Shown here piece by piece: positions 24,163 through 43,002 of a stretch of DNA of 43,002 nucleotides (within the stretch, counting starts at the first letter, position 1; every line of letters starts with the position of its first letter). Both the position numbers and the translations under genes were made by a program. Under the pieces are notes generated by a model. That model was not told where the DNA came from. It made no database searches and was given only the letters and a program-made list of their open reading frames with translations. The DNA is from Candidatus Magasanikbacteria bacterium RIFOXYC2_FULL_42_28 (GTDB lineage Bacteria; Patescibacteriota; Patescibacteriia; Magasanikbacterales; GWA2-37-8), in contig MFQZ01000007.1 of NCBI GenBank assembly GCA_001784435.1, positions 137 through 43,138 on the forward strand. The letters are read 5' to 3'.

Positions 24163-24222
24163 GCGGAGAGGGTGAGATTTACCCCTACACTTCGCTTCGG
24201 GGCATAAACTTCGAATCCTTAC
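24163..24222 (-). mobile_element. tRNA-linked mini-element type I with a duplicated tRNA-Ser 3' end
   Basis: 17-nt direct repeat gcggagagggtgagatt (24163-24179 = 24273-24289); its 44-nt core matches 42101-42144 at 40/44 positions. Confidence 0.7.
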
Positions 24223-24273
24223 GCACTTCATATAGTAAAATTACCCCAACTGCGTTGGGCTAATTTTACTATG

Positions 24274-39882: not shown

Positions 39883-41373
39883 TTAGAGGATAGATTGATC
39901 ATGTTTTTTGCCATTTTCAACACCCCCTGCAAATGCGGTATCTACCTTTTTGGGAATATCTACACCGACTTTTTTGTAGTAAACTAAACCCTTGAAACCG
40001 CTATCTATTTTCTGTAACAGCCCTTTGTCTGTCCAGACCTTAAAATATCGAGACATTTTTATAGTATCGGTAATTCCAGTAATATCTCGAGCTTGTTTGT
40101 TATTAATTCTATAATTATTATCAAGATATTTGCTTACGGTATCCCAATATTCAATTCTCTGCAAATTCAATAAAACAAGTAAAACAGAATTTGGTCTTAT
40201 TGTTGGTGGTACAAATAATGGTTCATAGAGGTTTTGTTCTTTCATTACTTTATACATACGATCGACACCTTCGCCAATATCAAGATTAGGTGCCGACTGA
40301 AAACGATTGAGTGTTCTTAAAATTATCGGATTACGAGCAAATCTTTCTGATCGTATGTTGGTAGTTGTAATATGGCCAGGATATGTACCAGGACTCTCAA
40401 TTTCTACACGGTCATCAAATAATCTAACCTGAATATCGTCCTGCACAAAATAATTACGATGAATGACAGCATTGGTTATTGCTTCTTGATAAGCCCATTC
40501 CGGAACCATAAAAGTAGGATTAAAAGATGCACCAGATAATTTGGGAGGAGATTTTTTTACAATCTCCTCTCTAAAATACGCTACGGCTTTTTCAATTTGC
40601 TTTAACAGGGGGCCTTCAATAGTGAATGGTCGTGATACAAAATTTGGTTTTCCAGAGAAAGACGGACTTGTTCCATAATAATGTGATATCTTTATCCCAC
40701 ATTTATTTTTTAATAAAACGGATGGGTTTTTGCTAAACAACAAAGCCCCTGCTTTTGTTAATTCATATTTACCAGACTGTTGTAATGCCAAGCCGTTATC
40801 TTTTAAAAATTGCCAATTATCAACACCTTCACTTGATGTATCTTTTTTATATTGATTTAATAATTCGTTATCAAGATCGTCTAATTCATAAACCCCAGAT
40901 TTTTCATTCTCAAATTTTATAGAACCTTTTTCATACTTAAGACGCATTATTTCTGTTGATCCGATTTTTGTATTTTGGCATCCTTTTCTTACAAAAGTAT
41001 TTCCTCTTTTTAAGGAATGGACATCATCTCCTTTTTTAATATTAATAACCATTAACTTATCAGCTTGTCCAGATACATTGATAATGTCTAACTCGAATTT
41101 ACTCCAAAGCATTAATGGCGGATCTATCTCCTTATCAATAAGTCTTAAAAAGTCAGAAGCATTGTCAGGTTTTTCGCTTATACCAATTAATCTTTTTTCG
41201 CCCTGAGCCTTTGCAGGATCTTCCAAGCCAATTACAATAAAACCACCTTCGGTATTCGCAAAAGCTATGGCTGTTTCTAATAGTTTGGAGGGATCAATGG
41301 CGACTCTTTTGCATTCAAAAGATTGCCATTCTTGCATCTCTAAAAATAATTTTACAATTTCTTTATCTTCCAT
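39883..41373 (-). CDS. AlbA_2/Schlafen-domain protein with an HATPase_c_4 (RecG-C-like) domain and C-terminal HTH
   Basis: Motifs E...FECK, AFANTEGG..VIG, EA..NA..HR.Y, SPG, RNP and GEG; AT-rich relative to the upstream ATPase. Confidence 0.85.
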   Translation of the reverse strand: MEDKEIVKLFLEMQEWQSFECKRVAIDPSKLLETAIAFANTEGGFIVIGLEDPAKAQGEKRLIGISEKPDNASDFLRLIDKEIDPPLMLWSKFELDIINVSGQADKLMVINIKKGDDVHSLKRGNTFVRKGCQNTKIGSTEIMRLKYEKGSIKFENEKSGVYELDDLDNELLNQYKKDTSSEGVDNWQFLKDNGLALQQSGKYELTKAGALLFSKNPSVLLKNKCGIKISHYYGTSPSFSGKPNFVSRPFTIEGPLLKQIEKAVAYFREEIVKKSPPKLSGASFNPTFMVPEWAYQEAITNAVIHRNYFVQDDIQVRLFDDRVEIESPGTYPGHITTTNIRSERFARNPIILRTLNRFQSAPNLDIGEGVDRMYKVMKEQNLYEPLFVPPTIRPNSVLLVLLNLQRIEYWDTVSKYLDNNYRINNKQARDITGITDTIKMSRYFKVWTDKGLLQKIDSGFKGLVYYKKVGVDIPKKVDTAFAGGVENGKKHDQSIL

Positions 41374-41377
41374 ATAG

Positions 41378-41581
41378 TTATTTTTTAGTTTTAGGTTTTG
41401 GTTTTGTAATATTACTCGACTCGTCCAAAAATGCGTTCAGATCTGATTGCCTAATCCGCCAAGTACCAAGTTTGGATGCCTTAAGCCGTCCGGATTCAAT
41501 ATAGCGGTTTACGGTTCTGGTATGTACTCTTAATATTTTGGCGATTTCGGTTATTGTAAAAAGTTTTTCAATGTCATTCAT
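41378..41581 (-). CDS. Excisionase-like HTH_17 DNA-binding protein
   Basis: LFT..EIA.IL.VH..TV.RYI..G.LKA.K.G.WRI. Confidence 0.85.
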   Translation of the reverse strand: MNDIEKLFTITEIAKILRVHTRTVNRYIESGRLKASKLGTWRIRQSDLNAFLDESSNITKPKPKTKK

Positions 41582-41851
41582 AAAATATTATTTAACTTTT
41601 AGACCTTGATACCATTTTACTCTTTATGATTTGTATTGTCAAAATTACGCAATTTTGTCATAATAGACTTATAATGACAAACTACTGCTTTTGTCCTTAT
41701 TATTTTTGAACACCCAGATAAATGGCGATAAAACCGTGATTTCGTATCAAAAACCCTTTCAAATGATCTTTGACCGAGTATCCAATATAACTCACAAAAA
41801 AGCCCGTAGATAAAGAGAAAAGCAGAGCTTTTGGCTCTGCTCATCCCATAT

Positions 41852-42034
41852 GGCTCCGCGAGACTAGGCGCTTCGCTATTCGAAGTCGTCGCTTCGCTCC
41901 TCCCACGAAAACCTTGCGCCACCGCTGAAGCTTTGGCGACACGCGGTCGGGTTTTCGTGAACTTTCCTCCGCATGTGAAAACTCCTCCGCCAAAGGCGAA
42001 CAGGCTGTTTTCACCCTTTCCCGTTCGAATCCAG
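41852..42034 (-). mobile_element. tRNA-linked mini-element type II with a degenerate tRNA-Asn 3' end and nested inserts
   Basis: ggctccgcgagactagg plus a core homologous to 25786-25891. Confidence 0.7.
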
Positions 42035-42086
42035 ATTCCAAAACAATAAAATAAATACCCGCTAAAAAGCTGGTATTTATTTTATG

Positions 42087-42144
42087 GCTCCGGGACTAGG
42101 ATTTACCCCTACGCTACGCTTCGGGGCATAAACTTCTCATCCTT
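42087..42144 (-). mobile_element. tRNA-linked mini-element type I with a duplicated tRNA-Asn 3' end
   Basis: 17-nt direct repeat gctccgggactaggatt (42087-42103 = 42196-42212); core matches 24177-24220. Confidence 0.7.
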
Positions 42145-42196
42145 TGCCACAGAATATAATTAAAAAATAGGACAAAAGTCCTATTTTTTAATTATG

Positions 42197-42268
42197 CTCC
42201 GGGACTAGGATTCGAACCTAGGATATCCACGTTAACAGCGTGGCGTTGTACCACTCAACTATCCCGGA
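42197..42268 (-). tRNA. tRNA-Asn(GTT)
   Basis: TCCGGGATAGTTGAGTGGTACAACGCCACGCTGTTAACGTGGATATCCTAGGTTCGAATCCTAGTCCCGGAG. Confidence 0.95.
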
Positions 42269-42312
42269 ATTGGTACGCTTCATTCTGATTATTCCGGCTA
42301 TTAAGTGAAAAA

Positions 42313-42362
42313 CTACTCTCCGCCCAAAGCGGATCAGCCTCGGGCTGAAACTATCCCGGAAT
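42313..42362 (-). pseudogene. 5' fragment of a second tRNA-Asn copy, interrupted by a 30-bp double hairpin
   Basis: aactatcccggaat duplicates the tRNA 5' end; the insert at 42319-42348 sits in the D stem. Confidence 0.7.
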
Positions 42363-42363
42363 T

Positions 42364-42412
42364 AAAAACCCGCCTCTTCGGCGGATTTAATTTTGTAATA
42401 TTAAATTCACCG
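42364..42412 (-). terminator. Attenuator with terminator (3:4) and competing antiterminator (2:3)
   Basis: AAATCCGCC-GAAGA-GGCGGGTTT+TT terminator; CGGTGAATTTAA (42401-42412) pairs with TTAAATCCGCCG (42379-42390). Confidence 0.8.
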
Positions 42413-42413
42413 G

Positions 42414-42473
42414 CTAAACAAGCGGATTATTATTGTTATTATTATTGGCAACAATAGTAGTGAATTTCTTCAT
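42414..42473 (-). CDS. Poly-Asn leader peptide MKKFTTIVANNNNNNNPLV
   Basis: ATG AAG AAA TTC ACT ACT ATT GTT GCC AAT AAT AAT AAC AAT AAT AAT CCG CTT GTT TAG. Confidence 0.85.
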   Translation of the reverse strand: MKKFTTIVANNNNNNNPLV

Positions 42474-42483
42474 ATATAACGAT

Positions 42484-42512
42484 ATTATAACACATTTTGA
42501 CGGTTTTGTCAA
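42484..42512 (-). promoter_or_regulatory. Consensus sigma70 promoter of the leader/tRNA-Asn transcript
   Basis: TTGACA (42507-42512), 17 bp, TG-n-TATAAT (42484-42489). Confidence 0.88.
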
Positions 42513-42521
42513 TACACTTAT

Positions 42522-43001
42522 TTATCTAATACACGCGCCATTTAGACAACCCTTAGAACAATTCACTCGCCGTTTATTAAGCGTACGACCACTGCAATTA
42601 AATTCTAATAATCCATCGCGGATTAAGCCGGCATCAGTATTTTCAATAATATCACCTTCGCAAATATCACTAAATGTTGTTAAAAAGGCCGGGGCACCGC
42701 CGATAACGCTGTACAAAGAATTACTGCCGGCAATATAAACATCATCCTCGTTTTCCTTGTCCGCGCTATCGCAATAATTAGTGGTACTCTCGCTACCTCT
42801 ACTCACACACAACCCATTGGCGCAGGTCTGACCAGTTGGACATGCTACCGAAGTTTCATCGGCTCCTCCGAGAGAAACGTTACACGAAAATTCATCAACC
42901 GCCCCCGATAAACAACTATCCACATTAACCGAAGTGGCGCCAGTAGCATTATTAGTTACCACAGTCATACCAACAAAACCGACATCAACTCCATAATCAT
43001 T
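42522..43001 (-). CDS. C-terminal part (5'-partial) of a Cys-rich extracellular protein
   Basis: Frame is open to the window edge; repeated C...C.NG.C motifs (CPTGQTCANGLC, CSKGCLNGAC). Confidence 0.7.
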   Translation of the reverse strand, partial: NDYGVDVGFVGMTVVTNNATGATSVNVDSCLSGAVDEFSCNVSLGGADETSVACPTGQTCANGLCVSRGSESTTNYCDSADKENEDDVYIAGSNSLYSVIGGAPAFLTTFSDICEGDIIENTDAGLIRDGLLEFNCSGRTLNKRRVNCSKGCLNGACIR

Positions 43002-43002
43002 A

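Follow-up and report, generated by a model that had tools for sequence, protein, structure and literature searches.

A conserved leader with asparagine control codons upstream of tRNA-Asn genes in Paceibacteria: a probable ribosome-mediated attenuator with a tRNA as its output

Introduction

Leader-peptide attenuators are known from the amino-acid operons (trpL, hisL, pheL, leuL, thrL and ilvL), and Rfam holds Trp, His, Leu and Thr leader families. In these systems a short open reading frame (ORF) with a run of cognate codons is combined with overlapping 1:2, 2:3 and 3:4 helices and an intrinsic terminator, and the position of the ribosome selects the fold; the genes that they regulate are those of biosynthesis, transport or aminoacyl-tRNA synthetases. 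Here we describe a leader of the same layout that stands instead in front of a tRNA-Asn gene, in a stretch of 43,002 nucleotides (nt), hereafter the window, from Candidatus Magasanikbacteria bacterium RIFOXYC2_FULL_42_28. It differs from the amino-acid operon attenuators also in its predicted leaderless mRNA, its Asn codons, the lack of a match to any Rfam leader family and its host, which belongs to the Candidate Phyla Radiation (CPR). We consider it probable, at roughly 80%, that the element is a conserved ribosome-mediated leader-peptide transcription attenuator whose sole output is the tRNA that reads its control codons.

Three other described systems come close. In Escherichia coli the pheM leader peptide controls pheST, the genes of phenylalanyl-tRNA synthetase, so what this attenuator regulates is likewise a part of the apparatus for charging and decoding, and not the synthesis of an amino acid. 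Its output is, however, the synthetase protein and it responds to charging capacity, whereas the output of the Asn leader is the tRNA itself, so the loop would close on the molecule being sensed. An Asn-specific T-box has been reported upstream of aspS-gatCAB-asnS in Clostridium. T-boxes likewise attenuate transcription, sense one tRNA species and rely on competition between antiterminator and terminator, but they bind uncharged tRNA directly, do not need translation and target synthetase or amidotransferase genes, whereas the Asn leader targets a tRNA gene. The mgtL/mgtP-type leaders of Salmonella mgtA and mgtCBR reportedly sense proline codons; there, too, the speed of translation at particular codons of a short leader ORF decides downstream transcription, although the controlled genes encode a transporter and virulence functions, not a tRNA, and the signals are Pro-tRNA or Mg2+. 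We know of no described leader with Asn control codons.

According to the main text of one study (PMC2965389), leader peptides had been known in Proteobacteria and Actinobacteria only, to which that work added Firmicutes. The term "tRNA gene" does not occur in that main text; the supplementary tables of attenuated families that belong to it could list tRNA genes. The original prediction, made from the letters of the window alone, had proposed an attenuator acting on the cognate tRNA and had named no described example of one. Our literature search, which covered main texts, likewise turned up no account of a tRNA gene under the control of a leader peptide, nor of such direct feedback on an individual bacterial tRNA gene.

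Promoter, leader ORF and helices

The genome to which the window belongs (G000; 1.15 Mb in 10 contigs, GC content about 42%) carries the leader and its tRNA-Asn on contig C7 and a second tRNA-Asn gene on contig C5. The relatives of a neighbouring P-type ATPase are encoded in metagenome-assembled genomes of Parcubacteria/Paceibacteria. In the order of transcription, the parts of the leader and its tRNA are:

42484..42512, minus strand: sigma-70-type promoter, TTGACA at 42512-42507, 17-nt spacer with a TG extension, TATAAT at 42489-42484; 12/12 match
42414..42473, minus strand: leader ORF of 19 codons plus TAG, peptide MKKFTTIVANNNNNNNPLV; ATG at 42473, TAG at 42416-42414
42459..42467, minus strand: candidate segment 1, AAATTCACT, codons 3-5, complementary to segment 2
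42426..42446, minus strand: control codons, seven consecutive Asn (AAT x3, AAC, AAT x3), that is six AAT and one AAC
42400..42412, minus strand: segment 2, antiterminator 5' arm; begins 2 nt past the stop codon and would be covered by a ribosome there
42379..42391, minus strand: segment 3, antiterminator 3' arm; overlaps the terminator 5' strand at 42388-42380
42364..42374, minus strand: segment 4, GGCGGGTTT at 42374-42366, and the U-run at 42368-42364; terminator 3' strand and tail, -13.3 kcal/mol
42196..42268, minus strand: intact tRNA-Asn, anticodon GTT (ARAGORN; Rfam tRNA model, 70.5 bits)

The promoter is thus as perfect as had been predicted, with the TG extension in addition, and the ORF with its seven Asn codons and single synonymous AAC is present as described. 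The -10 hexamer lies 10 nt from the ATG, so the mRNA should be leaderless or nearly so. No promoter-like site was found on the minus strand in 42270-42360, between terminator and tRNA, where the original prediction had envisaged a separate tRNA promoter as an alternative. Runs of at least five AAY triplets occur only three times in the whole genome, both strands considered. As candidate leaders the other two were rejected: one lies, by eye, inside a coding region of the opposite strand and the other is an (AAT)12 microsatellite (C2:95220).

The statement that other tRNA promoters lack such a leader can be widened to the genome, since an upstream short ORF enriched in the cognate residue is absent at all 46 other tRNA genes of G000; it was at these 46 genes that leaders for other amino acids were looked for, and none was found. 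A candidate His leader was also rejected: the pattern CATCAYCAYCAY...T-loop occurred in 1 of 151 genomes of the class, at a GC-rich, chance-like locus that was not scanned for a tRNA.

Two overlapping helices follow the ORF, in agreement with the original prediction. The 2:3 antiterminator joins 42412-42400 with 42391-42379 (-12.9 kcal/mol), and the 3:4 terminator joins 42388-42380 with 42374-42366 (-13.3 kcal/mol) and runs into the U-run; in the antiterminator fold, 8 of the 9 bases of the terminator 5' strand are paired upstream. The 1:2 helix, on the other hand, had been placed around the stop codon as a weak pairing, and here the prediction has to be changed: the best segment 1 consists of codons 3-5 (42467-42459). 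When the nascent RNA up to segment 2 was folded, AAATTCACT paired with GGTGAATTT of segment 2 over 9 bp, and this helix is kept in G001, a relative of the same genus. The leader as a whole folds at -27.4 kcal/mol (z = -2.29), which 1 of 200 shuffled sequences equalled.

The window leader was then folded with the ribosome at different positions, using only the RNA ahead of it and a leading edge 10-14 nt beyond the A-site codon's first base. This procedure replaced folding with a masked ribosome footprint, which had allowed pairs across the ribosome and produced long-range pairs spanning it, an artefact. The antiterminator formed when the ribosome stood at Asn 1 or Asn 4, the terminator from Asn 7 onward. 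A scan of 41000-43002 with Rfam cmscan at E up to 1 gave no match to the Trp, His, Leu, Thr or Phe leader families, only the tRNA and weak unrelated matches; the best match at the leader itself, to P9, scored 27.5 bits, below the gathering score of 43.

Conservation and association with tRNA-Asn

A search with the leader DNA found a copy of 79% identity in G001 and partial matches in other genera. The G001 ORF, with the peptide MKKFTTIVANNNNNNPFV, departs from that of the window through one codon deleted in frame, an L-to-F change and otherwise synonymous changes, and the helices are altered on both sides. The peptides of four further relatives (G024, G023, G006 and G009) are unrelated save for runs of 5-6 Asn, and their tRNA-Asn begins 2-8 nt past the U-run. 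Across the relatives, Asn codons are the only thing that the leader peptides have in common.

The window tRNA-Asn was used to collect loci from 100 genomes of the same family. It matched 65 places outside G000, at 61 of which ARAGORN confirmed an intact tRNA-Asn(GTT). The same architecture, in which the tRNA directly follows a short ORF rich in Asn codons, hairpins and a U-run, was present at 43 of the 61 intact loci. Two loci, L065 and L083, were left out of the leader set as their ORFs passed the filter but are C-termini of proteins, and L089 was included after inspection.

From the 43 leaders, with tRNA sequence excluded, we built the covariance model R1 and ran it against the 100 whole family genomes at E up to 0.001. 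It found 57 places in 54 genomes, followed downstream by an ARAGORN-confirmed tRNA-Asn (53 places), a partial tRNA-Asn (two, one of them cut off at a contig end) or a contig end (two). Forty-three of the matches were G000 and the known loci, and 14 were new: 10 before a tRNA-Asn(GTT) of a more divergent type, two at contig ends and two before partial tRNA-Asn matches. On the fetched family loci R1 gave no match at leaderless tRNA-Asn genes. None of the 57 matches lay upstream of a protein gene, asnS, asnB and gatCAB included; the possibility raised beforehand, that the leader is an orphan left by a deleted gene of this kind, is therefore unsupported.

These results also bear on the view that the leader ORF and its terminator are an independent small gene, for an Asn-rich peptide or a small RNA, with the tRNA transcribed by constitutive read-through or from a start of its own. 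The ORF does have its own strong promoter and terminator, and a share of the tRNA-Asn loci of the family (18/61) do without a leader. An independent gene would nevertheless have to be one whose products share Asn codons alone, and all 57 R1 matches stand at a tRNA-Asn or a contig end. In 30 of 39 leaders the tRNA starts at most 14 nt from the first U of the tail, too close for a promoter to fit in between. Moreover, the placing of the stop codon with respect to segment 2 is conserved and covarying, as is the alternative helix. We think this view very unlikely.

Beyond the family, we searched with a strict pattern, AATAAYAAY-N(40-70)-T-N(30-60)-GCTGTTAACG, which on the family loci recovered 40 of the 43 leaders and none of the 18 leaderless loci. 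It misses G000 because of a 79-nt insert described below, and its counts are therefore lower bounds for the genomes searched. The pattern occurred in 32 of 401 genomes of the class, from 18 families, against 2 for the reversed-pattern control. When 29 class-level loci were inspected, 28 showed the promoter, ATG, Asn-rich ORF, hairpins, U-run and tRNA-Asn, so that the conservation of ORF and helices looked for in relatives is seen at both levels. A phylum-wide sample gave 7 of 401 genomes, of which three were real, two in the family and G237, which lies outside the class and has the leader MFTKLNNNNNNY.

In 70 leaders the peptide is 10-29 residues long (median 16) and contains 3-18 Asn codons (median 6); the longest run, in L061 of G013, is 18 consecutive Asn codons in MQFTRN(x18)KPPCCE. 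Asn makes up 39% of residues in these peptides compared with 5.0% in long ORFs of G000. AAT accounts for 0.73 of the Asn codons in the leaders and 0.74 in the genome, so rare codons were not selected. A promoter matching at least 9 of 12 positions, with the -10 hexamer ending 5-12 nt before the ATG, precedes 64 of the 70 leaders, so we expect their transcripts to have little or no untranslated sequence before the ATG. Counted from the stop codon, the first base of segment 2 falls within -13 to +9 nt.

Marker genes put the completeness of both G023 and G013 at 100%. In these two, searches with two BLAST queries and a generic anticodon-arm pattern found no tRNA-Asn other than the attenuated gene, which suggests that it is the sole tRNA-Asn of these genomes. 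Two copies of the leader each were seen in G005, G029, G115, G603 and G658.

Covariation and folding across leaders

The terminator is present in 42 of the 43 family leaders. On a plain MAFFT alignment (A1), 85% of its alignment cells are paired, and 47 cells show a double change compared with 19.4 +/- 3.4 in shuffles (0/500); sliding the partners weakens the covariation signal. With the MAFFT alignment, RNAalifold recovered four terminator pairs only and was set aside for the antiterminator in favour of a swap test and a model-fitted alignment (A2, 63 sequences), which leans towards structure. In the swap test we calculated, for 42 leaders, how far the upstream region stabilises pairing with the terminator 5' strand. 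The leader's own region gave -9.9 kcal/mol, regions swapped in from leaders with dissimilar terminators -4.2, and shuffled regions -2.7. On A2, 68% of the antiterminator cells are paired compared with 58%, and 71 show a double change compared with 35.9 (0/500). Helix covariation, which had been named as a check of the original prediction, is thus seen for the terminator on A1, and for the antiterminator on A2 together with the swap test.

Ribosome-position folds were made for 68 leaders. The terminator was the minimum-energy fold in 62-64 of them when the ribosome stood at the stop codon; at the first Asn codon it was gone in 50-51, and later Asn codons gave intermediate values. The folds thereby reproduce the switch of trp/his/pheST-type attenuation, whose geometry had been recognised in the window. 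Clustered cognate codons, a terminator, and an antiterminator that shares a strand with it and would be covered at the stop codon, structural features of attenuators, are found in the Asn leader. The segment-2 arm pairs with the head of the ORF over at least 5 nt in 32 of 65 leaders, compared with 28% for swapped and 23% for shuffled heads, which lends moderate support to a candidate 1:2 helix of the classical kind, whose loop would hold the Asn run.

The same data speak to a switch that works without translation, in which the AAY repeats would pair directly with the GUU anticodon of tRNA-Asn, as a T-box does with its tRNA, or would bind a protein, and so choose between antiterminator and terminator. 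The AAY triplets are indeed complementary to the anticodon and a Shine-Dalgarno sequence is absent. Against this, the Rfam T-box family (presumably RF00230), which is marked by Stem I, a specifier loop and the T-box sequence, had no match in 41000-43002 at E up to 1, and all 70 leaders have an in-frame ATG 5-12 nt past a -10 hexamer and an in-frame stop codon beside segment 2. The variation within the runs is mainly between AAT and AAC, which is synonymous in frame, and the ribosome-position model reproduces the switching. We give such a mechanism hardly any chance, and the reading that we prefer is attenuation by a translating ribosome.

The inserted element and the second tRNA-Asn gene

Between the terminator and the intact tRNA of the window lie two further features:

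42349..42361, minus strand: 13-nt copy of the tRNA-Asn start, TTCCGGGATAGTT, 3 nt past the U-run; repeated at 42269-42257
42270..42348, minus strand: inserted 79-nt element with the double hairpin TCAGCC-CGA-GGCTGA, TCCGC-TTTGG-GCGGA, flanked by the 13-nt repeats

The original prediction had noted a 5' fragment of the tRNA followed by the intact gene. Both are there, yet the fragment has to be read differently, as the original tRNA start, split off by the 79-nt insert. In G024, G023, G006 and G009 the intact tRNA begins at the position of the 13-nt copy. The copy is the original start of the tRNA gene and the scar of a repeat-element insertion, and the insert is no part of the switch. The same element occupies the same position of the tRNA in G001, in G021 (where the leader is absent) and in G081.

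The repeat has a consensus of about TCAGCC-NNN-GGCTGA TCCGCC-TTGG-GCGGA. In tRNA-Asn the insertion follows position 12, and 12-13 nt from the start of the tRNA are duplicated. It was also seen at L039, L069, L184, L013, L004, L006, L010-L012 and L017. Many Paceibacteria genomes have multiple copies of the double-hairpin core, often within or adjacent to tRNA genes, and one copy sits between the duplicated parts of a tRNA-Ser. By eye, a hairpin at about 41980-42020 of the window (minus strand), GTGAAAAC...TCGCC-TTTG-GCGGA...GTTTTCAC, is similar to the insert's second hairpin with its tail.

The second tRNA-Asn gene of G000, on contig C5, is leaderless and has a perfect promoter about 37 nt upstream. 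With this gene able to supply the cell, the attenuator of G000 might be a relic, its tRNA uncoupled from it by the insertion, all the more as the insert between the U-run and the tRNA carries a terminator-like hairpin. The combination of leader, insert and intact tRNA is, however, kept in G001, with an intact ORF and compensatory changes in the helices; the C7 tRNA is itself intact, and no alternative promoter was found for it. Decay of the G000 attenuator therefore appears improbable to us.

Neighbouring elements

Several other small elements were seen at tRNA genes. A module of ~95 nt follows three tRNA genes of G000, both tRNA-Asn and a tRNA-Ser(CGA), at 42088-42195 and 24167-24272 of the window (both minus strand) and at about 34440-34547 of contig C5. 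It consists of a hairpin, followed by GATGAGAAGTTTATGCCCC...GGGGTAA, and each copy closes by repeating the final ~17 nt of its own tRNA; similar duplicates of tRNA 3' ends occur in G114 and G104. The module has the look of a miniature element with tRNA T-loops as its integration sites.

In relatives, a second, leaderless type of tRNA-Asn carries an insert of about 230-600 nt that splits it at the anticodon. Examples are L193 (G001), L194 (G089) and L195 (G020), whose inserts match an Rfam group I intron at 62-87 bits (gathering score 50), and there are further split matches in G017, G071, G098 and G110.

Downstream of the window tRNA-Asn, at 39883-41581 (minus strand), is a stretch of low GC content (0.352 at 40001-42000) with genes for an HTH_17 (excisionase-like) protein and for a Schlafen AlbA_2 / HATPase_c_4 protein, which fits an island integrated at tRNA-Asn. 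Upstream of the leader, 42522-43002 (minus strand) holds a gene for a Cys-rich protein, its frame open to the contig end; the 148-residue ORF that starts with ATG (42522-42968) had no Pfam match. ARAGORN also reported, on contigs C1, C2 and C4 of G000, a tRNA-Ile with anticodon TAT, an unassigned tRNA-like gene whose anticodon was called as two bases, and a tmRNA whose tag has 28 residues.

Discussion

We envisage the switch as follows. The strong promoter would start the RNA at the AUG or a few bases before it, and a ribosome would translate the Asn-rich ORF while RNA polymerase transcribes the next ~60 nt. When Asn-tRNA(Asn) is plentiful, the ribosome would reach the stop codon and cover segment 2, the 3:4 terminator would form, and transcription would stop before the tRNA. 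When the Asn codons are read slowly, the ribosome would wait in the Asn run and cover segment 1, leaving segment 2 free; this would pair with segment 3, no terminator would form, and the polymerase would continue into tRNA-Asn. The outcome would be negative feedback on the supply of usable tRNA-Asn. Comparison among genomes supports an attenuator with the cognate tRNA as its output, as originally predicted; we infer translation of the ORF, read-through upon stalling and Asn-tRNA as the signal. Most likely, then, the leader raises the output of tRNA-Asn when the reading of Asn codons slows.

Several observations weigh against this interpretation. The antiterminator on A1 was indistinguishable from shuffles (62.4% compared with 60.4%, with 20 of 500 shuffles as high), and the positions of its bulges vary among leaders, so the putative antiterminator draws its support from the model-fitted alignment and from energy calculations. 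In 17-18 of 68 leaders the terminator persists as the minimum-energy fold with segment 2 free, and the naked full leader shows it in only 29 of 68. The 18 family tRNA-Asn loci without a leader have a plain promoter or lie directly behind another gene. The window ORF has no Shine-Dalgarno sequence, and leaderless initiation in these bacteria is assumed. In G000 itself the insert, with its second terminator-like hairpin, separates the switch from the tRNA, and the feedback loop may matter less there because the second tRNA-Asn gene has a plain promoter.

As to what the loop would serve, we considered asparagine metabolism and rejected it, since asnS, gatB and an asnB-type gene are present in G000 and tRNA-Asn is therefore not needed as the sole route to asparagine. 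The attenuated gene might be an inducible spare tRNA-Asn, on only when AAY decoding falters, and a closed-loop governor of an essential tRNA where it is the sole copy, but we regard this role as rather unlikely. A spare of this kind could be called on when the constitutive copy, which in relatives contains a group I intron, fails, when tRNA-Asn is cleaved or hypomodified, or under attack by a phage or a rival. Since tRNA-Asn loci of these genomes are hot spots for small mobile elements, the leader may also belong to a conflict over tRNA-Asn.

If the attenuator works as envisaged, it represents a new kind of output, as the known leader peptides control enzymes and synthetases, whereas this one would control the very tRNA by which its control codons are read. 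The cell would gauge the speed of decoding and correct it through the supply of tRNA. With 18 families represented in the 401-genome sample, the element is widespread in Paceibacteria, and dozens of short "hypothetical" ORFs could be re-annotated as regulatory leaders. Its compact size of ~110 nt suits it to testing in vitro. For CPR bacteria, which are hard to culture, it suggests leaderless translation and a tight coupling of transcription to translation.

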